This document shows positions 4,677 through 52,556 of a stretch of DNA of 64,000 nt, piece by piece (positions within the stretch are counted from its first letter, which is position 1; every line of letters starts with the position of its first letter). The notes under the pieces are model-generated. The model saw only the letters and a list, made by a program, of their open reading frames with translations. It had not been told where the DNA came from and did no database searches. This DNA comes from a virus, in IMG/VR virus record IMGVR_UViG_3300009149_000012, positions 84,882 to 148,881 of that record; one strand, given 5' to 3'. The translations under genes were made by a program, and so were the position numbers.

Positions 4677-6452
4677 CTACTTGGCCCGGTTTCCACTCTT
4701 GAGGAACCCGGCAGACGGTCGAAAGAACGTTTCGAGAAAATCTTCGGGGTTCACATCTACATCTTGGAGGTGCTGCGTAGCAGCGGCCTCATCTTCACTC
4801 GGATCGACGGTCTCGAACGGAATGTCTGTCCGAATGGACATGAGATCTGCATTCAGCTTGACCCTGATCTCGGCATCACGCAATCGTTGGTACTGAGATT
4901 TGGTCACCCCGGCGAGTCCAGAAGCGAAGATTCCGTCGACAGTATCATGAGAACGTACCAGTGATGCAAGAATTTTCTTAGGAACACGGCCCACTCCGGG
5001 GAGATTGTCCGACGTATCCCCCGCAAGTGCCCGAAGAGAAACCATTTTCTCTGGGGGAACGTTGTACTCGAATTCGACCAAGTCAGGATCGAATAGGATC
5101 TCTTTTCGACCACCGACGGACGGGACGAGAAGCACATCCGTGCGCGTCACAAGTTGAAGGAAGTCTCGGTCCGTCGAGATGATCACGTTCCGGTCGCCCT
5201 TGAGAGGGCCTCGAACCAACGTTCCGATGACGTCGTCGGCCTCTTCCTCAGGGTGAAACGCCTGTGCAATGCCCAGGTTGGGGAGCAAGTTGTCTCGCAG
5301 GTAGGTAATCTGATCGAAAAGCGGCACCCCATGGGGCTTTCGATTGGCCTTGTACTCGGGATTCAAAGCCTTTCGCCGTTGACTCGACCCATCCCAGCAC
5401 ACGAAGAACATCGCGTCGTGATAGCGCTTGCGCAGTGCGCCAAGGCTTCGCAAAAACGCGTAGATCACACCGGTCGGCCGACCTTTTGAATCCGCTAGAT
5501 CTTGCATGCCCGGTGCGTACAACGCACGGAACGCCATGTTATGCCCGTCTACGATGATGTTGCTGATCATGTCGTCACCCTCGAATTCCTGACACCGTTG
5601 GTTTACACCGTCGATCCAGGACCACTTTCGGAAAGCGTCTCGAAGCGGAACCAAATCGAGACTGGGGATGGGCTTGTTCAAGATTTGAGTTTGTTCAAGC
5701 CACTGAGTCAGCATATGCCAGCGCTGTAGAAGGGCTGCCGCCTGAGACATGTCGAGCATGTCGACATCCTCTGCGATCTTCGAAGGCTGAAGCTGTTGGT
5801 AGAAGGACAATACCCGGGAGTATTCTTGAAAACCGTCCCGGATGGGCACGATCTGACCCGCCCACCCGGCTACGACCTGAGCCTCTTGTGCCCAAGCCTT
5901 CAACTCCTGCACTCGTTTCAAAAACGTCATAGGGCGAGCTTTACGAACCAGTTGCAAGAACGAACGGGGAAGGGTGAGCAGTGACTGCTTGGACCGAAGC
6001 TGCACGAAGACCTGGACGGACTGTTTCTCTGGGATTTCCTCGACCACCGTCGCCTGAATGTTTCGGTAGGGGCCCGAAAGAATCAGAACTGTGTCGTCGA
6101 CGCCGATCCCTTGATCTACCTCAGCATTGGCCTGTTTTTTGAACTTGTTGATCTCCCGATCCGATATGGTCGCCAGGCAACGACACCGCCCCGTGCCTTG
6201 GGTTAAGATCGCCGCAACGTAACGATTCGAATTGGGGAGACGAAGGTAGTCGGAGTCGGGGCGCGTTCGCTGAGCAAACGCGTAGCCATCCACCAAGTAG
6301 TGCACCATGCGGTCGTCGCCGATCTGCGTGACGACGGCTGGGATGTACACCTCGGTGCCTCTCAACGCCTTGGAGATTGACCGTTGGAGAATCTCTGGAT
6401 CCTCCCCATCACTTTTTGAGTTGAGGGCCAGCACGACCCAATCAGTCGTCAT
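4677..6452 (-). CDS. NusG-like (NGN+KOW) domain fused in-frame to PolI-type 5'-3' exonuclease
   Basis: KOW-like VDDTVLILSGPY; nuclease motifs IVDGHN, YKANR, EADDVIG, STDRD, GDTSDNLPGV; possible internal start at 5570. Confidence 0.85.
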   Translation of the reverse strand: MTTDWVVLALNSKSDGEDPEILQRSISKALRGTEVYIPAVVTQIGDDRMVHYLVDGYAFAQRTRPDSDYLRLPNSNRYVAAILTQGTGRCRCLATISDREINKFKKQANAEVDQGIGVDDTVLILSGPYRNIQATVVEEIPEKQSVQVFVQLRSKQSLLTLPRSFLQLVRKARPMTFLKRVQELKAWAQEAQVVAGWAGQIVPIRDGFQEYSRVLSFYQQLQPSKIAEDVDMLDMSQAAALLQRWHMLTQWLEQTQILNKPIPSLDLVPLRDAFRKWSWIDGVNQRCQEFEGDDMISNIIVDGHNMAFRALYAPGMQDLADSKGRPTGVIYAFLRSLGALRKRYHDAMFFVCWDGSSQRRKALNPEYKANRKPHGVPLFDQITYLRDNLLPNLGIAQAFHPEEEADDVIGTLVRGPLKGDRNVIISTDRDFLQLVTRTDVLLVPSVGGRKEILFDPDLVEFEYNVPPEKMVSLRALAGDTSDNLPGVGRVPKKILASLVRSHDTVDGIFASGLAGVTKSQYQRLRDAEIRVKLNADLMSIRTDIPFETVDPSEDEAAATQHLQDVDVNPEDFLETFFRPSAGFLKSGNRAK

Positions 6453-33633: not shown

Positions 33634-33903
33634 TCAGCTTCCAGGCAGGGTCTCGTAGGTCGCCAATTGCTGGGACCACAAGACCCCTTCGATCCACCCA
33701 AGGGCTCCCGCTGCGGCGAGCGAGTTGCCTTCCCGGGCGATTCTCAAAACGTTCGGGATCATCCAGAGCACGTGGCACAGGACTTCCATCCGTTCCGGGA
33801 TCTTGCCCGGGAGCGTGTATTGCTTCGGAGTAGCACCCGCCTCTTGAAGCAAATCACGGTACTTCTCAAGAGCCCGCTCGAAATGAGGATCACTTGGTGC
33901 CAA
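33634..33903 (-). CDS. Hypothetical protein
   Basis: Coupled to HNH gene; LGWIEGVLW. Confidence 0.55.
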   Translation of the reverse strand: MAPSDPHFERALEKYRDLLQEAGATPKQYTLPGKIPERMEVLCHVLWMIPNVLRIAREGNSLAAAGALGWIEGVLWSQQLATYETLPGS

Positions 33904-34405
33904 GGTACCACGTCCATTGCTCGGGAGCGTTGTTCATCGGGATGGGAGGCGGGGTGAGCGGCAGCGTCTTGGGCTGGACCGGCTTTTTCAGCAGCCGCAT
34001 CCCTGCTTGCTGCGGCGTGCGACCCGCTTTGCGGTTGTTGCACGGGTAGCAACACGTCACGATGTTCGTCCACACAGTCTTCCCACCTTGGGAGCGAGGG
34101 ATGACGTGGTCGTAGTTGAGCTTGCTCATCGTCGCCTTCGTTCCGCAATACTGGCAAACGAACTTGTCCCGGGTCATCACGTTGATCCGAGAGAACTTCA
34201 CAGCCTTTTTGCGAGCCGAAACCGTCTTCGTGAGTCGAGCCACGGCGGGAATGCTCATCTCCACCGAAGGACTACGGACCGTTTCCTCATACTCTTCCAG
34301 CACCTCGATCTTGCCCATCCACAGCAAGCACACGGCTTGCTCCCAGGGTACGATCCGGTGAGGCTGGAAGCCTTGAGTCAGGATAAGTGTGTGGGATGAA
34401 GCCAT
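33890..34405 (-). CDS. HNH endonuclease (McrA-like)
   Basis: RD..CQYCG, DHVIPRSQGG, NIVTCCYPCNNRK. Confidence 0.9.
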   Translation of the reverse strand: MASSHTLILTQGFQPHRIVPWEQAVCLLWMGKIEVLEEYEETVRSPSVEMSIPAVARLTKTVSARKKAVKFSRINVMTRDKFVCQYCGTKATMSKLNYDHVIPRSQGGKTVWTNIVTCCYPCNNRKAGRTPQQAGMRLLKKPVQPKTLPLTPPPIPMNNAPEQWTWYLGTK

Positions 34406-38466: not shown

Positions 38467-38486
38467 TGGAACCAGAGGAGAGAATC
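38467..38486 (-). pseudogene. 3' remnant of disrupted tRNA-Gln
   Basis: GATT-CTCTC-CTCTGGT-T-CCA; pairs with GCCAGGG at 39301. Confidence 0.65.
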
Positions 38487-39144
38487 ACCTTAGCCATTTC
38501 CGAATGGCGTTATCGCTCACACCATACTTCCGACCCACCCCAGTGAATCCCAGTTTTTTGATTTCCTCTTGAAGCACGGATAGGGTTGGCCGCTTGACTC
38601 TCCGGTATGGGAACTGGGCACACCTCCCGCACTGACCCCCCTGTTGCCCTACAAGAGCACCACACTTGCAAGAATGTATTTTTCTCGCATTTCTTCCTGC
38701 ATGTGTCGGTAGCTGGCTGGCACAATTGGGGCAAACAAGACGTAGATTCTCTATACGATGATCGTCGGCCACACCGTTTTTATGATCCAGCACCATAACC
38801 AAGGACTGCCCACGCCAAACGGGGGGCAGCCCGCAGACAGAGCACTCATTTTCCAGCACTTTTTCTTGTAGCAATCGCCGCTTTAAGTGACCACGACCAA
38901 AGGACGAGTTTTCAACTAGAACAGAATCAAGGGGTTTCTTAGGCCGAATCCCATGAGGATGCACTCCGAAATGAGAAACATCGACACCCTCCTCAGCCAA
39001 ACGACGGTGAAGGGTTCGACAGTTTCCCCCTTTGTTAACCAAACCGAAATGTGCCAAAACCTCGGTATAAGTGTGGCTTGAAGCTACCAAAGACCTGAAT
39101 TCATCCGAGGTCAGGCCCCAAATAGGGCTGGTCCGTTTACGCAT
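38485..39144 (-). CDS. HNH homing endonuclease
   Basis: CSVCG, LDHKNG, ENLRLVCPNC, C-terminal HTH. Confidence 0.9.
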   Translation of the reverse strand: MRKRTSPIWGLTSDEFRSLVASSHTYTEVLAHFGLVNKGGNCRTLHRRLAEEGVDVSHFGVHPHGIRPKKPLDSVLVENSSFGRGHLKRRLLQEKVLENECSVCGLPPVWRGQSLVMVLDHKNGVADDHRIENLRLVCPNCASQLPTHAGRNARKIHSCKCGALVGQQGGQCGRCAQFPYRRVKRPTLSVLQEEIKKLGFTGVGRKYGVSDNAIRKWLR

Positions 39145-39187
39145 GGGGTAGAGCTTACTCCACACCGCAAACAAAGTCTACCCCTAG

Positions 39188-45452: not shown

Positions 45453-45603
45453 TGGTGGAGTAGACGGGATTCGAACCCGCCGTGAAGCTACGGTATGCCT
45501 AAAGGCTGTTCTCCAGCCATCCAGAGCCACTGGGTCGCGAACACCAGCTTGATCCCTGGTCCTAGTTTTCGTTTGCAGCAAGGCGACCATGCCTTCCTAC
45601 CCC
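45453..45603 (-). ncRNA. Ala-type tRNA-like RNA with about 83-nt anticodon-loop insertion (I)
   Basis: GGGGTAG/CTACTCC, A73, CCA, T-arm. Confidence 0.75.
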
Positions 45604-46551: not shown

Positions 46552-46795
46552 ACGGTCTGGGTGGGATTCGAACCCACACCTCCGAGTTTACCACAGCATA
46601 CGCTTCTCGGCATTCTACCGTTAAACCACCTCTCGAACTGCCCTCATAGGCGTCACCACCATCCTCTTCCCACCCTGATCCGATGTCTCCAAGCATGACC
46701 TGTCCAGGCCCTTCCCCTGGCTCACGGTTTTTATAGCGTTAGCTGTGGTTATCATGCGAGTGAACACCGGGGGCTTTCCGCATCCGATGGCTACT
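46552..46795 (-). ncRNA. ncRNA with 3' tRNA-like domain and 19-nt anticodon loop (K)
   Basis: D-arm, CCGAG/CTCGG stem, T-arm; loop pairs upstream. Confidence 0.55.
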
Positions 46796-47309: not shown

Positions 47310-47675
47310 ATGTCACGACGAAAACTGCAAGACAACAGCCTTTCGGCTCCGGAGAGGCTACCAATTTCTCCACGTATCAGCCATCTCAGCGAACCGAGAG
47401 GACCGACCCGACGGGACTTGAACCCGCACGCCCTTTCGGGCACCGGTTTGCGATTGTAGTCCGACATGCATTCGTGACAAGTAGTAGGTCTCGACGAAAA
47501 TCGACGAAAGTCTTGGTTATGGCCGGCACATTGGGGTCTGGCTCTTTCGAGTAACCCCCGTTCGCCCCGCACCCGTCTGGTCAGAGACCTGAAAGGTGCC
47601 ATCACGCTACCTCAGTCGCCTGAAGATCGCTACCTTAGGACCATTGTAGTATTGTACTTCCGTCCGCATTCGAAA
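47310..47675 (-). ncRNA. About 365-nt candidate ncRNA with Leu-like V/T arms and 23S-like segment (N)
   Basis: GCCC-GAAA-GGGC plus T-arm; GGTCCTAAGGTAGCGA. Confidence 0.55.
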
Positions 47676-47791: not shown

Positions 47792-48148
47792 ATGAACAAG
47801 TTTGCAACTCCACGAGAACTCCTCGTTGAACTTCGCAGTCTGATTGCCACCATCCAAAGTTATGGTGAAGACGGCAAACCTGACCGTCATATGGTCGCCG
47901 AAAAACTTGATGGCTTGGCGAATCGGATGGCCGGGGATCTTCGTCCAAAAAAGATGGCCCCCATCAGCTACACGTACGACCACCCAAGTCTCGGCAAACT
48001 TCTCGTGAACTGGGTAGGCCGAGATGGATGGGTTGTAATTGACGCATCACACAAGGTTTTGGTTGCAAAACTGCTGCCTGGTTTGCAACCCATGGACAAC
48101 CCACGAGCCGCAGACATCCTTCAAAGAGCCGTGGACAAGGCTCTCTAG
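47792..48148 (+). CDS. Hypothetical protein
   Basis: Start MNKFATP after TTTGATA. Confidence 0.65.
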   Translation: MNKFATPRELLVELRSLIATIQSYGEDGKPDRHMVAEKLDGLANRMAGDLRPKKMAPISYTYDHPSLGKLLVNWVGRDGWVVIDASHKVLVAKLLPGLQPMDNPRAADILQRAVDKAL

Positions 48149-48221
48149 AGCGGGTGACGAGAATCGAACTCGCCGGGGACTGCGATGGCAACGCAGCGCT
48201 CCACCTTGGAGCATCACCCGC
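48149..48221 (-). tRNA. tRNA-Gly(GCC)
   Basis: Loop TT-GCC-AT, 6-bp D-stem. Confidence 0.85.
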
Positions 48222-48227
48222 AATTTG

Positions 48228-48464
48228 TCGGTCTGACGGGACTCGAACCCGCATAACCACTCCGTACCTGTTAGGAAAACGCGCTTCCCTACAGAACCCT
48301 CTCGAACCCTGTCCGGTGCATCCGCAAACCCGGCACACGCTTGCTGGTTCTCCCTACCCGAGCATCACCCTGAAGGGTTTCCCCAGTTCACGTCGGAGCG
48401 TCAACCTTCCGATTGACCACGTTAACCGTTTTTCGTGGTGCGTACCCATTTTCGCCACAGACCG
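48228..48464 (-). ncRNA. tRNA-shell RNA with about 170-nt insertion in anticodon arm (O)
   Basis: CGGTCTG/CAGACCG, D-arm, CCAC/GTGG, T-arm, A73. Confidence 0.75.
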
Positions 48465-48473
48465 AGAAATTGA

Positions 48474-48580
48474 AGCTTCGAAGACCCAGGCCCGACGGGC
48501 GTTCATGAGAAGGTGCTTCGGCCGAAGTCCTAACTCCCGATGGGAGAGCCTTGCTACTCTCTTTCCTGAATCTTCGAAGC
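48474..48580 (-). ncRNA. Candidate spacer ncRNA (P)
   Basis: 16-bp terminal helix GCTTCGAAGATTCAGG/CCTGGGTCTTCGAAGC. Confidence 0.55.
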
Positions 48581-48582
48581 AG

Positions 48583-48667
48583 TGCCATCGGTGGGAGTTG
48601 AACCCACACGCCCACTATGGAGCACCAGATTCTGAGTCTGGCGTGTCTGCCGTTTCACCACGATGGC
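48583..48667 (-). tRNA. tRNA-Leu(CAG)
   Basis: V-arm. Confidence 0.9.
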
Positions 48668-48673
48668 AATCAG

Positions 48674-48748
48674 TCGGGACGGCCGGATTCGAACCGGCGA
48701 TCTCCTGTCCCCCAGACAGGCGCTTTTGCCAGGCTAAGCTACACCCCG
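48674..48748 (-). tRNA. tRNA-Pro(GGG)
   Basis: Cloverleaf. Confidence 0.9.
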
Positions 48749-48753
48749 TAGTC

Positions 48754-48825
48754 CCAACGAGCCAGCCGACATTTCCGCACGAGACGGGATGACAGAACCG
48801 GCCAGGTCCTGAACTGACTCGTTGG
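48754..48825 (-). ncRNA. Candidate spacer ncRNA (Q)
   Basis: 12-bp terminal helix CCAACGAGTCAG/CTGGCTCGTTGG. Confidence 0.45.
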
Positions 48826-48902
48826 TGGTGGGCGCACCGAGAATTGAACTCGAATTTCTCGGATATCAGCCGAGCGTGGAGAAACCACCCTACTATACGC
48901 CC
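48826..48902 (-). tRNA. tRNA-Ile(GAT)
   Basis: CCA. Confidence 0.85.
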
Positions 48903-48914
48903 ATTCAGTCTCAG

Positions 48915-48986
48915 TGGTCAGAGCGGGAATTGAACCCGCATTGCTGGATTTTCAATCCAGAGCACTTCCAATTGTACTATCTGACC
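48915..48986 (-). tRNA. tRNA-Phe(GAA), second copy
   Basis: Overlaps HNH stop. Confidence 0.85.
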
Positions 48987-49447
48987 TGGTCTGACTTGTA
49001 ACCCCAAGTAGCCAATTGTGTATGGCAATTAGGGCAAACAAATCTCAAGTTCTCACGACGACAGTCCAAAGAATCGCCATTCACGTGGTCGATTTGAAGC
49101 GTCAAAGAAGCTCCCTCCCACATTGGGGGCAACCCGCATCGTGAGCAGATATGGGGCACCCCTGATTCGAGAAGGGCTCTACGCAGCCTGTGTGTGTCCT
49201 CCCGTCGAGCCTTCCGCTTCACCAAGATCAACTCTGGTGGCTTCTTATGCGACGGCGGTCGCCCAACACCAGTTCGATGCCCAACAAAATGGGAGGTATC
49301 AATCCCAAAAACACGAAGTTTTGACCGAATCAAAGATGATGAGGCACCCGAATAGGTCTTGAACCCCATCCGACGCATCATTTCTGACACCGAAGTCGAA
49401 ACGGCAGCCACCTCTTCAAGCAGTTCCTTTGTGTACTTCCGCTTCAT
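48977..49447 (-). CDS. HNH homing endonuclease
   Basis: CSRCG, IDHVNG, ENLRFVCPNCH. Confidence 0.9.
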   Translation of the reverse strand: MKRKYTKELLEEVAAVSTSVSEMMRRMGFKTYSGASSSLIRSKLRVFGIDTSHFVGHRTGVGRPPSHKKPPELILVKRKARREDTHRLRRALLESGVPHICSRCGLPPMWEGASLTLQIDHVNGDSLDCRRENLRFVCPNCHTQLATWGYKSDQVR

Positions 49448-49486
49448 GGGACAAGGTACCTAGCATTGACGCAGTACCTTGTCCAG

Positions 49487-49561
49487 CGGTCCTGACGAGA
49501 TTTGAACTCGCGATCTTCACCGTGACAGGGTGACGGGGACTCCAGGCTCCCCTACAGGACC
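49487..49561 (-). tRNA. tRNA-Asp(GTC), second copy
   Basis: Cloverleaf. Confidence 0.9.
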
Positions 49562-49567
49562 AAATTT

Positions 49568-49637
49568 GCTGGGAAGAGGCTGGAAGTGAACCAGCCCACC
49601 GCACGCTGATCATACGTGTGTGCTCAACCGAGCTTCC
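49568..49637 (-). pseudogene. Degenerate tRNA-like element (GAT loop)
   Basis: D-arm, anticodon arm, T-loop TTCACTT; poor acceptor. Confidence 0.4.
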
Positions 49638-49667
49638 TGGCAGAGGTGAAAGGAATCGAACCTTCCC
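49638..49667 (-). pseudogene. 3' remnant of disrupted tRNA-Trp
   Basis: T-arm + CACCTCT-G-CCA pairs with AGGGGTG at 50239. Confidence 0.75.
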
Positions 49668-49671
49668 TTAG

Positions 49672-49742
49672 CGAGCCAGGCAGGAATCGAACCTGCTACC
49701 AGCGGTTTTGGAGACCGCCGAGCTGCCTCAGCATTCTGACCC
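49672..49742 (-). tRNA. tRNA-Trp(CCA)
   Basis: Loop CT-CCA-AA, G73; overlaps HNH 3' end. Confidence 0.85.
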
Positions 49743-50159
49743 TCGTGTCCATCCATTTTCCTTCGCTGTCTTGCGACGATGGCAGTTGGCACAACGTATC
49801 TCACACTTCTCAAGCTCTTTCTGTACGGCTTCCCATGTGCGACCGGAAGTCAGCATCTTGGCGATCCCCGAAGCCTTCCGGCCACGCACATGGTCGGCAT
49901 CGAGTACCACCGGGTCTGATTCACCGCAATCCACACACTTCTGGGTAGCCAGCCACACCCGGTACGCTTTTTTGACCTTGCGCTTGTTCGCAAGAGCACG
50001 GTCTTTGTATGGTTGCGGATGGTTGCGGTAGTGCTCCTTGCGGTACAACCGAAGACAATCAGGACAGGCCGATTGCCTCCAGCCTTTCGCTTGGTTCTTA
50101 AAGGCGTAGGTTTCTTCGGGAAGATCGTCCCCACACCGAGAGCAATGCTTCATACCCAT
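49728..50159 (-). CDS. HNH endonuclease with N-terminal Zn finger
   Basis: CSRC..CPDC, CVDCG, DH, CANCHR. Confidence 0.85.
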   Translation of the reverse strand: MGMKHCSRCGDDLPEETYAFKNQAKGWRQSACPDCLRLYRKEHYRNHPQPYKDRALANKRKVKKAYRVWLATQKCVDCGESDPVVLDADHVRGRKASGIAKMLTSGRTWEAVQKELEKCEIRCANCHRRKTAKENGWTRGSEC

Positions 50160-50196
50160 GAGCGAAGTGTAGCACATGGTACTCCAAAGGCAAGAC

Positions 50197-50239
50197 TCGG
50201 TTTTGGAGACCAATTCGCCGCCTTGGAACATGCACCCCT
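50197..50239 (-). pseudogene. 5' remnant of disrupted tRNA-Trp(CCA)
   Basis: AGGGGTG through TTGGT-CTCCAAA-ACCGA. Confidence 0.75.
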
Positions 50240-50245
50240 AAATAG

Positions 50246-50317
50246 TGACTCGCACGGGAATTGAACCCGTCTTTGCAGAATGAAAACCTGCCGTCCTTGC
50301 CGATAGACGAGCGAGCC
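50246..50317 (-). tRNA. tRNA-Glu(TTC)
   Basis: Cloverleaf. Confidence 0.9.
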
Positions 50318-50321
50318 TTGG

Positions 50322-50547
50322 TTGGTGTTGGTCTCAGCGGACCCGAGAGCGGGGGCTGGGGAATTTGGAATTTGTCAACGACCATGGCACTCCCTGCTTC
50401 CCAAGCGAGGAGATTAGAGCACGTACGACCCGAGTAATAGGTACCTTTCGGCATTGCTGTTTTAACCAGACATCGCATCGTAAGGTTGGGAGCCCTACTC
50501 ACAAAGTCGTGCCCAAGTACCATGGTAGAGGCCCACGACCAACACCA
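50322..50547 (-). ncRNA. Candidate spacer ncRNA (S)
   Basis: 11-bp terminal helix TGGTGTTGGTC/GACCAACACCA; inner ACCATGGTACT/AGTGCCATGGT. Confidence 0.6.
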
Positions 50548-50548
50548 G

Positions 50549-50631
50549 CGGAAACAGGAGGAGTCGAACCCCACACCTTGCGGTGCACTTCGGTTAGCAG
50601 CCGAGCCTTGGGCCATCCAAGTGCAGTTTCC
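50549..50631 (-). tRNA. tRNA-Ser(GCT), 8/4-type
   Basis: V-arm, G73. Confidence 0.85.
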
Positions 50632-50688
50632 AATGAGCCAGCGGGCGATCCAGATCGGGGGGCTTGAGAGGACCCACCCACGGCTCGG

Positions 50689-50762
50689 CGTTCCCAAGGG
50701 GAATCGAACCCCTGTTTTCAGATTGAGAATCTGACGTCCTTGCCGGACTAGACGATGGGAAC
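50689..50762 (-). tRNA. tRNA-Glu(CTC)
   Basis: Cloverleaf. Confidence 0.9.
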
Positions 50763-50814
50763 AATCGGTGATGGGCAAGCCGTTGAGCAAGCCCGCCACC
50801 TTCACAATTGCGGG

Positions 50815-50887
50815 AGCTACCGACAGGATTCGAACCTGCTGACTCCGGTTTACAAAACCGGTGCACGACCTATCGTGCTTCGGTAGC
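50815..50887 (-). tRNA. tRNA-Thr(TGT)
   Basis: Cloverleaf. Confidence 0.9.
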
Positions 50888-50889
50888 AC

Positions 50890-51243
50890 AGGGCCCACAA
50901 GTTGGGCCCCTTCGAACTTCTTACCCTTGACTTAGTGTCAGGAAAACAATAGGTTGCCACTCAGACGGACCTTGGAAGTGCAAATTCTAGGAGACGCCCA
51001 AGTGGCGTCCGGTTTGCGACACGTCCGAGAACTTCGGTGACTCCGAAGAGTTTTCGCCCCTGTCAGGTCATGACGGGAACACCGATACCCAAACACGCGA
51101 CCCCCGGCAGGAGCGTTCTCGTAGGGCACATTCCACGCACTTTCACATGCGGGTCGACACCCGGTACTTGCCCCCAAACTTAGGGCCGGCAAAGAGTGAC
51201 GAGACGTAATGTTGTTGGATTGTAGTCTCGTCGGCATCCGGCC
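50890..51243 (-). ncRNA. About 350-nt candidate ncRNA (V)
   Basis: Many hairpins, no credible ORF; shares 10-11-mers with N. Confidence 0.5.
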
Positions 51244-51246
51244 TAG

Positions 51247-51319
51247 AGCCGCCAGGGGGAATCGAACCCACCTTACACTCGCTTACGAAACGAGGACTCG
51301 ACCATCGAGAATTAGCGGC
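51247..51319 (-). tRNA. tRNA-Thr(CGT)
   Basis: Loop TT-CGT-AA. Confidence 0.8.
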
Positions 51320-51409
51320 AATGCCTATTCGGTTGTCAAGGGTCAGGGGGGCGACGCCCCCATCGTCTCATGGTATACACCGAATGTTCAGTGTTCGGCC
51401 AGACTTTCT

Positions 51410-51784
51410 TCAGACCCAACGAGAATCGTTGTTGGCAGGCTTCGTGCAAGCGAGGTGGCGGCAGACGTCGATGCCCTTGAAGGTCACGAAGTCATCGTTG
51501 GGAAGCCCTTCACGCTTGACCATGCGGCGGGTAGCGCTGCGCATGTACTCTTGCGCGAGCTTGTTGACGTCATTGTCGAAGTATTCTGTCATGACTTCGT
51601 CATCGGCCAAGTTGGCGTAGACGTGGACGACGTGCTTGTAGCCGGTGAGCATGTTGCCCTTGCGGCCCCCATACACGGGGATCTGAAAGTGGTACCTCAG
51701 CCCGATGACTTCTTCGCACTCGGCGATGGTCAACTGGGGGGAGGTGGGCTCTTTGGGGGCGGGGAAGTTGATTTCGGTCTGCAT
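51410..51784 (-). CDS. Hypothetical protein
   Basis: ATG 7 nt after CTTAG. Confidence 0.7.
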   Translation of the reverse strand: MQTEINFPAPKEPTSPQLTIAECEEVIGLRYHFQIPVYGGRKGNMLTGYKHVVHVYANLADDEVMTEYFDNDVNKLAQEYMRSATRRMVKREGLPNDDFVTFKGIDVCRHLACTKPANNDSRWV

Positions 51785-51791
51785 GGACCCT

Positions 51792-51818
51792 CTAAGGAAC
51801 GAGGGGCGAAGCGATCAA
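51792..51818 (-). promoter_or_regulatory. TTGATY-N16-CTTAG promoter motif
   Basis: Repeat motif. Confidence 0.7.
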
Positions 51819-52222
51819 CCAAGATTCGCAGGTTCTTTGGGCAAGCCCTTCGAATCACGAAGGACCCGGATGGTCGCTGCCATGTCCGCAATCGCTTCCT
51901 CGGAAGAGTCTCGGATGTGCGACCAGTCGAACAACAAGGGAGAGTCCGGGTTCTTGCCGAAGCCATCCGCCATGCTGCGGATGATCTGCTTGTCCTCATG
52001 GGTCAGAGCGTCTTGGTCCGAACCCGTGGGGGCCAGATGGCCCACCACGAGACACCAGTCACGGCTCACGAAGTCGTAACCGACGTAGACGTAGCCAAGG
52101 TCTTCCATGTCCTTGACGACCTTGTTGGCCGCATGACCATCGTCAAGGTCGCCATCACGAAGGCGGGAGACGCCTTCACCAAGGGTGCGGAGAACTTCTT
52201 TGGAGAGATTGAGCGTTGTCAT
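51815..52222 (-). CDS. Hypothetical protein
   Basis: ATG 7 nt after CTTAG. Confidence 0.7.
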   Translation of the reverse strand: MTTLNLSKEVLRTLGEGVSRLRDGDLDDGHAANKVVKDMEDLGYVYVGYDFVSRDWCLVVGHLAPTGSDQDALTHEDKQIIRSMADGFGKNPDSPLLFDWSHIRDSSEEAIADMAATIRVLRDSKGLPKEPANLG

Positions 52223-52462: not shown

Positions 52463-52556
52463 GCCACCATCTACACCAGTGGAGCTTGGATGCCTCGAAC
52501 ATCCCGCCAAGGGCTCTCTTGTCCCCCACGCTGTCGCCACCCGACAAACCCCATAG

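Follow-up and report, generated by a model that had tools for sequence, protein, structure and literature searches.

The tryptophan tRNA gene in a viral tRNA array is interrupted, in its variable loop, by a segment that carries an HNH endonuclease gene and a second, complete tRNA-Trp(CCA). It is quite likely, we believe, that this segment is an intron-less HNH homing cassette which makes good the loss of the gene it broke, the breakage by cleavage being an inference. The insertion itself and its boundaries are observed, as are an allele of the locus that lacks the cassette, an intact nuclease motif, the recurrence of the nuclease in company with a tRNA, and a second insertion within a different type of tRNA-Trp.

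The window, by which is meant the whole stretch of DNA that was analysed (64,000 nucleotides), is the last 64 kb of the 148.9-kb IMG/VR virus record IMGVR_UViG_3300009149_000012. CheckV puts the completeness of the record at 31%, which makes it likely to belong to a jumbo phage of which the rest is missing. Its G+C content is about 57%. No close relative was found amongst INPHARED phages, which gave tRNA-sized matches only, and no RNA dataset is listed for this stretch. An array of 45 genes (44 tRNA and 1 tmRNA), all on the minus strand, extends over positions 31385-53110 and is interspersed with small ORFs, four of them encoding HNH endonucleases (Table 1). Two tRNAs, tRNA-Phe(GAA) and tRNA-Asp(GUC), are each present twice in the array. 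Read along the minus strand, the locus of interest consists of tRNA-Glu, the 5' part of a tRNA-Trp, a promoter-like site, the HNH gene, a complete tRNA-Trp(CCA), the 3' part of the broken tRNA-Trp, and tRNA-Asp. The HNH gene beyond tRNA-Asp belongs to another family; it lies between tRNA-Asp and tRNA-Phe, its 3' end overlaps tRNA-Phe by 10 nt, and a perfect 11-bp inverted repeat (49449-49459 and 49474-49484, with a 14-nt loop) is found between tRNA-Asp and its start.

Table 1. Positions of features at the interrupted tRNA-Trp locus and of HNH genes in the array, in window coordinates
Feature	Position	Strand	Evidence
tRNA-Glu(UUC), left flank, common to all three alleles	50245-50317	minus	ARAGORN; Rfam 48.8 bits; X2 and X3 contigs
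Orphan 5' part (nt 1-43) of resident X-type tRNA-Trp	50197-50239	minus	Sequence read
Cassette left end: junction 50196-50194, -35 hexamer 50193-50188, -10 hexamer 50171-50166	50166-50196	minus	
Cassette HNH endonuclease gene, 141 aa, intact	49728-50153	minus	
Cargo Y-type tRNA-Trp(CCA), compact D arm	49672-49742	minus	ARAGORN; Rfam 34.9 bits vs 29-bit threshold
Right junction, 6 nt: filler or variable-loop remnant	49666-49671	minus	Unaligned in X2 and X3 contigs
Orphan 3' part of resident tRNA-Trp	49638-49665	minus	7/7 pairing; joined to 5' part in X2
tRNA-Asp(GUC), right flank	49486-49561	minus	ARAGORN; Rfam; Logan contigs
Second HNH gene, phrog_10822 (other family than cassette HNH)	48977-49447	minus	
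HNH endonuclease gene in array	38485-39174		
HNH endonuclease gene in array	33890-34405		

The resident gene, here called X type, survives as two orphan parts. The 5' part, separated from tRNA-Glu by a 5-nt spacer, has the acceptor strand AGGGGTG, the D region, and the whole anticodon arm with its CCA, and it stops at nucleotide 43. The 3' part has a 5-bp T stem, a 7-nt T loop, the acceptor strand CACCTCT, G73, and an encoded CCA. The two acceptor strands form seven pairs of seven, one of them G-U (P = 0.003 for a random 7-mer), and among the six T-arm hairpins that lie outside annotated tRNAs on the minus strand, no other one pairs so completely. When the two parts are joined, ARAGORN recognizes a tRNA-Trp. 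A sequence-only reading of this DNA had already described the two parts, the pairing of CACCTCT with AGGGGTG, and an insert of 530 nt. The 5' part and the pairing were borne out, and the insert measures about 529 nt. The 3' part is present as well, but it starts at 49665, not 49667, the two extra bases being ambiguous.

Elsewhere, an intact X-type gene was sought by pattern in viral contigs and none was found. The orphan 5' part is, however, 91% identical to the 5' half of the intact tRNA-Trp of Bacillus phage Mater (KM236245; L005 1470-1546). The Mater gene is annotated on the wrong strand, as "tRNA-Pseudo, codon UGG"; the intact X-type tRNA-Trp, which ARAGORN does not call, is on the opposite strand, directly upstream of an HNH homing endonuclease gene. 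Within the window, the five other T-arm-like hairpins without a called tRNA (45457-45480, 46554-46577, 47404-47427, 48229-48252, and 52481-52504, minus strand) may be further broken or interrupted tRNA genes. Four of the five fall in spacers earlier described as tRNA "shells" with large inserts.

The complete tRNA-Trp carried by the insert (the cargo, here called Y type) is the only tRNA-Trp in the whole 148.9-kb record. The overlap with the 3' end of the HNH gene that the sequence-only reading had proposed is real: the first 15 nt of the tRNA are also the last codons and the stop of the nuclease gene. That reading had called the cargo an isoacceptor, which is the wrong term; with the same CCA anticodon as the resident, it is an isodecoder. 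Its D arm is unusual, with a 4-bp stem and a 3-nt N-G-G loop that does not meet the 7-11 nt of a canonical D loop, and its first pair is G1-C72 as opposed to A1-U72 in the resident. A tRNA-Trp is found after HNH homologues of 48-61% identity in six lineages (the window, L002, L088, L087, L214, and L216), and all six share the 4-bp D stem and the 3-nt N-G-G loop, some being missed by ARAGORN. Compensatory changes are seen in 11 of the 14 predicted pairs over seven cargo tRNA sequences. The compensatory changes, together with the recurrence after the nuclease, indicate that the cargo is a conserved and selected RNA that moves together with the nuclease. Viral contigs gave no matches to a Y-type tRNA pattern.

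The relatives show some variety in this arrangement. In L216, two tRNA-Trp genes with compact D arms (1618-1686 and 1791-1857) follow the HNH gene, and in L214 (881-1411), the HNH ORF runs through the entire tRNA-Trp, giving a protein of 176 aa vs about 142. Two loci are exceptional. One (L086, 1475-1500) has a canonical complete tRNA-Trp, a remnant of a Trp anticodon loop, the cassette left end, the HNH gene, and a tRNA-Ala, and it is possibly a third case of an orphan, now decayed. The other has a tRNA-Arg downstream of the nuclease gene. We also considered a model in which the cassette brings only the 5' half of a tRNA, which would fuse to the 3' half of the resident. It was rejected, because the window cargo already includes a T arm and an acceptor strand, and L002 and L088 have this complete tRNA as well.

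The insert is 529 nt long and the nuclease gene takes up 426 nt of that; every other ORF listed within it merely overlaps this gene or the tRNA. Its assignment in the sequence-only reading is upheld: the protein matches phrog_2255 ("HNH endonuclease", E 6.4e-33), although the Pfam HNH family PF01844 scores 14.1 bits, under the cut-off of 21.4, and the protein sequence matched no solved structure. From the search for homologues, 1976 were retrieved. Across an alignment of 36 of them, D88, H89, N124, and H126 are invariant, as are C74, C77, C118, C122, and C125 (numbered from a query that begins one codon before the true start). The HNH motif is therefore intact, with the catalytic D-H, N, and H and the flanking pairs of zinc-binding cysteines. 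The gene actually starts with the ATG at 50153 and not at 50231, because the homologues have a consensus N-terminus of MKxCxxC; the 167-aa ORF from 50231 merely extends through the orphan 5' part. The protein alone found no relative in the viral contigs, and an alignment-based search was required. No tyrosine or serine recombinase or integrase is found in the cassette, and no intron family (Rfam, group I or other) was detected in 48000-52000 at E values up to 10. The HNH ORF, with its own start and promoter-like site, thus lies outside any detected intron.

The promoter attributed to the gene by the sequence-only reading stands only in part. The hexamers are present (TTGCCT-N16-TACACT), but the site is weak, matching the consensus at 8 of 12 positions, and a promoter and terminator scan of 49400-50400 called nothing, these hexamers included. 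The cassette left end aligns with the same stretch in L002 and L088, and similar hexamers stand at the same place in both relatives. Also at the left end, an 11-nt stretch (50188-50178) is the inverted complement of the anticodon loop of the orphan, and such a complement gives a hairpin of 10-11 bp across the junction in both the window and L002 (50178-50212 and 6080-6112, with z of -2.7 and -2.3). The hairpin, which lies partly over the promoter spacer, could serve the nuclease as an operator or could be a scar left by the insertion.

The locus exists in more than one form. Contigs from three metagenomes in Logan were aligned to positions 48900-50800. A subsurface sample (X1) has the same arrangement as the window. 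The contig from a sediment sample (X2; 369 nt, depth 10) aligns with 49490-49662, continues with seven other letters, and then aligns with 50197-50387, so that the 534 nt holding the cassette are skipped: this is an empty site. Depth is zero across the HNH gene and the cargo tRNA. The X2 relative is about 97% identical to the window over the aligned flanks (3 and 6 flank differences, plus a 2-nt gap), and when the letters of the window are joined as in X2, they give a canonical tRNA-Trp with an encoded CCA, between tRNA-Glu and tRNA-Asp. The contig from marine sediment (X3; 718 nt, depth 35) passes from tRNA-Glu straight into a Y-type tRNA-Trp (49742-49675, with 9 of 68 positions differing) and resumes at 49643 with the spacer, tRNA-Asp, and tRNA-Phe, having neither of the X halves and neither of the HNH genes. 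The absence of the phrog_10822 gene from X3 indicates that it too is a presence/absence element. Taken together, the three samples reveal one locus with three alleles: X alone, Y alone, and X broken by HNH plus Y. For the empty-site and Y-only alleles, the evidence consists solely of the short X2 and X3 contigs, through their alignments to the window.

Relatives, then, keep an unbroken tRNA-Trp at the same spot, which indicates that the element replaces a gene it has destroyed and is not spliced out as an intron would be. The sequence-only reading had supposed a selfish cassette that breaks tRNA-Trp and supplies a substitute, and it had named the lack of any relative without the insert as grounds for refutation. 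Such a relative is found in X2, whose allele joins into a clean tRNA-Trp, and the supposition is further supported by the cargo being the sole tRNA-Trp of the record, by the recurrence of the unit, and by the insertion in L002 described below. Four near-identical copies of the phage from other samples are all occupied, and a scan of metagenomes with the orphan 3' part found only another copy of the same phage and an unrelated AT-rich tRNA-Trp. The differences between X2 and the window are unevenly placed: all six left-side substitutions are in tRNA-Glu(UUC) (50262-50299) and none is listed in the 43-nt orphan half. Four of the six are common to the X2 and X3 contigs. This exchange patch in tRNA-Glu does not begin at the break and, so far as alignments can tell, does not look like a simple tract of co-conversion.

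The closest homologue of the nuclease (61% identical) is encoded by L002, a 263-kb jumbo-phage contig with a similarly ordered tRNA array. Here again there is an orphan 5' part of a tRNA-Trp, then the conserved cassette left end, the HNH ORF, and a complete tRNA-Trp overlapping its stop. The orphan, however, is of another tRNA-Trp type than that of the window; with the 5' half of the window cargo it shares 95% identity. The break has the same position in both, after nucleotide 43-45, in the variable loop. Each orphan retains a 3' anticodon-stem strand that matches its own 5' strand (nt 39-43), which places both junctions 3' of nucleotide 43. For the same reason, a left junction arising from a crossover in the anticodon loop was rejected. 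Two separate landings at one position of the tRNA are the simplest account of what these sequences present, but a single old insertion is not fully excluded. No orphan 3' half is present in L002. Directly upstream of its orphan Trp half (5890-6030), there is a tRNA 3' part, with T arm, acceptor strand, and CCA. A 5' part comes next, and its acceptor strand can pair with that of the 3' part, so the halves are in permuted order.

More distant members of the family have related habits. Viral loci with homologues of 35-47% identity were surveyed (80 loci, 63 of them distinct), and nearly all of the 80 lie within tRNA arrays, on the tRNA strand. In 36 of the 63 distinct loci, a tRNA starts inside the ORF or no more than 80 nt from its end, the commonest arrangement being a 10-nt overlap. 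Among the 21 loci with a tRNA on either side of the nuclease gene, the two are for the same amino acid at 13 vs 43 of 169 nuclease-free neighbour pairs (odds ratio 4.8, p = 0.0015), a statistic computed over loci that are not phylogenetically independent. No orphan halves were found beside the homologues of 35-47% identity by local alignment of the downstream tRNA with the upstream region. A pattern composed of the anticodon loop and the cassette end gave at least 119 chance matches, none of them with an HNH gene.

Could all this have come about with no targeting of tRNA-Trp? Perhaps a fragment with an HNH gene and a tRNA-Trp was captured in a random break of the resident gene, in a recombination-prone array, the nuclease being a mere passenger. 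Debris of tRNA genes is frequent enough (the five extra orphan T-arm hairpins and the permuted halves in L002), the right junction shows no homology, and no cleavage data exist to contradict a passive role. Chance capture, however, would have had to place two nucleases, 61% identical to each other, at one and the same position of two distinct types of tRNA-Trp; the stretch present or absent between alleles coincides with the boundaries of the cassette; and the family as a whole is located at tRNA 5' ends and between tRNAs of the same isotype. We therefore regard passive capture as unlikely, while not dismissing it. Less probable by a good margin is that the nuclease drove a local amplification of a unit of tRNA-Trp plus nuclease, which then decayed by partial deletions, much as might be imagined from SegB and tRNA-Tyr of phage T6. 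The SegB unit is amplified via microhomology (PMC13096335), and here too the end of the ORF overlaps the 5' end of the tRNA. But the fragments are nested round the cassette instead of lying in tandem, the resident and the cargo differ so widely outside the anticodon loop and the T loop that they are not recent copies, and in the empty allele there is a single X gene with nothing added.

It is hardly credible, finally, that the 529 nt are an intron, removed from the transcript so that an X-type tRNA is still produced. In favour of an intron, the halves are undecayed relative to the empty allele and would give a perfect tRNA if joined. Yet the search for group I and other intron families came up empty even at the permissive threshold, the insert is in the variable loop and not the anticodon loop, it holds a complete tRNA of its own, and L002 has no 3' half to ligate.

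The reading that we prefer, a homing cassette that compensates for the gene it breaks, would work as follows. The cassette would comprise a weak promoter, the HNH gene, and the cargo tRNA-Trp fused to the end of that gene. The resident gene would amount to two dead halves, with the decoding of UGG presumably taken over by the cargo, for which there are no charging data. The nuclease is supposed to cut intact X-type genes near the variable loop or T arm, an inference in the absence of cleavage data, and the break would be repaired from a cassette-bearing genome in the same infected cell, as in intron homing. For that repair, the homology arms may be provided by both halves of the broken tRNA and by the flanking Glu and Asp genes. 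The cargo itself would escape cutting, there being many differences from X between nucleotide 43 and the T stem, but its resistance is likewise inferred. The first landing in a new tRNA type was evidently of a different nature. Since the right junction has no homology and a 6-nt filler, that landing is inferred to have been illegitimate and was not classical homologous homing.

Y is the cargo in the window and the victim in L002, which suggests a successive replacement of tRNA-Trp alleles. One may go further and imagine that natural "cleave-and-rescue" cassettes drive a serial turnover of tRNA-Trp, each lineage sparing its own tRNA and attacking the types of others, but this is a tentative extension, and we rather doubt that it will hold in full. 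The determinant of immunity could be the minimal 3-nt D loop of the cargo together with its altered variable region. Alternatively, the same features could also resist host defences that cut tRNA, and if the shape of the cargo does so, a selfish element would be useful to the phage.

Three alleles, and a tRNA type that is both cargo and victim, make a compact natural system in which to study how a target is chosen and how the spare escapes. The system may also tell to what extent phage tRNA sets owe their diversity and their oddities to selfish replacement as against codon adaptation. For annotation, there is a warning: dead halves of tRNAs occur in phage arrays, and standard finders overlook some working tRNAs on account of their shape.

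Searches of full-text literature found no description of such a cassette of nuclease plus spare tRNA. The nearest described system is SegB of phages T4 and T6, a free-standing GIY-YIG homing endonuclease encoded in a tRNA cluster and absent from close relatives (PMC2330249; PMC13096335). SegB recognizes a conserved T-loop motif and cuts the tRNA-Asn gene of T2L (PMC2330249). It is widely associated with tRNAs and amplifies a unit of tRNA plus segB through microhomology of the tRNA 5' end with the 3' end of the gene (PMC13096335). The likeness is considerable: in both cases, a free-standing nuclease gene lies in a phage tRNA cluster, is lacking in close relatives, and can move or amplify an adjacent tRNA along with itself, as the cassette travels with its tRNA. 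The folds differ, however, GIY-YIG in the one and HNH in the other. Also, segB has tRNA genes on either side and is passed on when homologous flanks are converted, whereas the cassette sits inside a tRNA gene. SegB has not been reported to split a tRNA into halves or to bring a substitute with the same anticodon, and the cassette does both.

Other systems resemble the cassette in one respect or another. The F-TflI, F-TflII, and F-TflIV endonucleases of the tRNA region of phage T5, reportedly described by Akulenko et al. in 2004, are like it in being HNH genes interspersed among phage tRNA genes, but we know of no target tRNA that they split and replace with another copy. Homing endonuclease genes in group I introns of tRNA genes are mobile nuclease genes inside a tRNA gene whose function is kept, but they keep it by RNA splicing, at a site in the anticodon loop, while the cassette does so with a second gene and has no intron fold that could be found. 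In the Aeromonas phage Aeh1, mobE is said (Friedrich et al., 2007) to be a free-standing endonuclease gene that splits nrdA. It too is an intron-less nuclease gene inside a useful gene, but the protein halves of nrdA stay functional and reassemble, while the tRNA halves here would be dead, with a spare gene provided in their stead.

Elements of the integrase type, which insert in tRNA genes, have in their attP the end of the tRNA that they displace, so that, as with the cassette, the function of the interrupted gene is restored. They carry only a tRNA end, however, where the cassette carries a whole tRNA and does so without an integrase. Synthetic "cleave and rescue" gene drives restore the function of the gene they cut, but they are engineered, and the likeness to the cassette is in logic only. 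Homing endonuclease genes are generally held either to invade useful genes safely, hidden in a self-splicing intron or an intein, or to occupy the space between genes. The cassette would represent a third way, in which the gene is broken and a spare comes with the element that breaks it.
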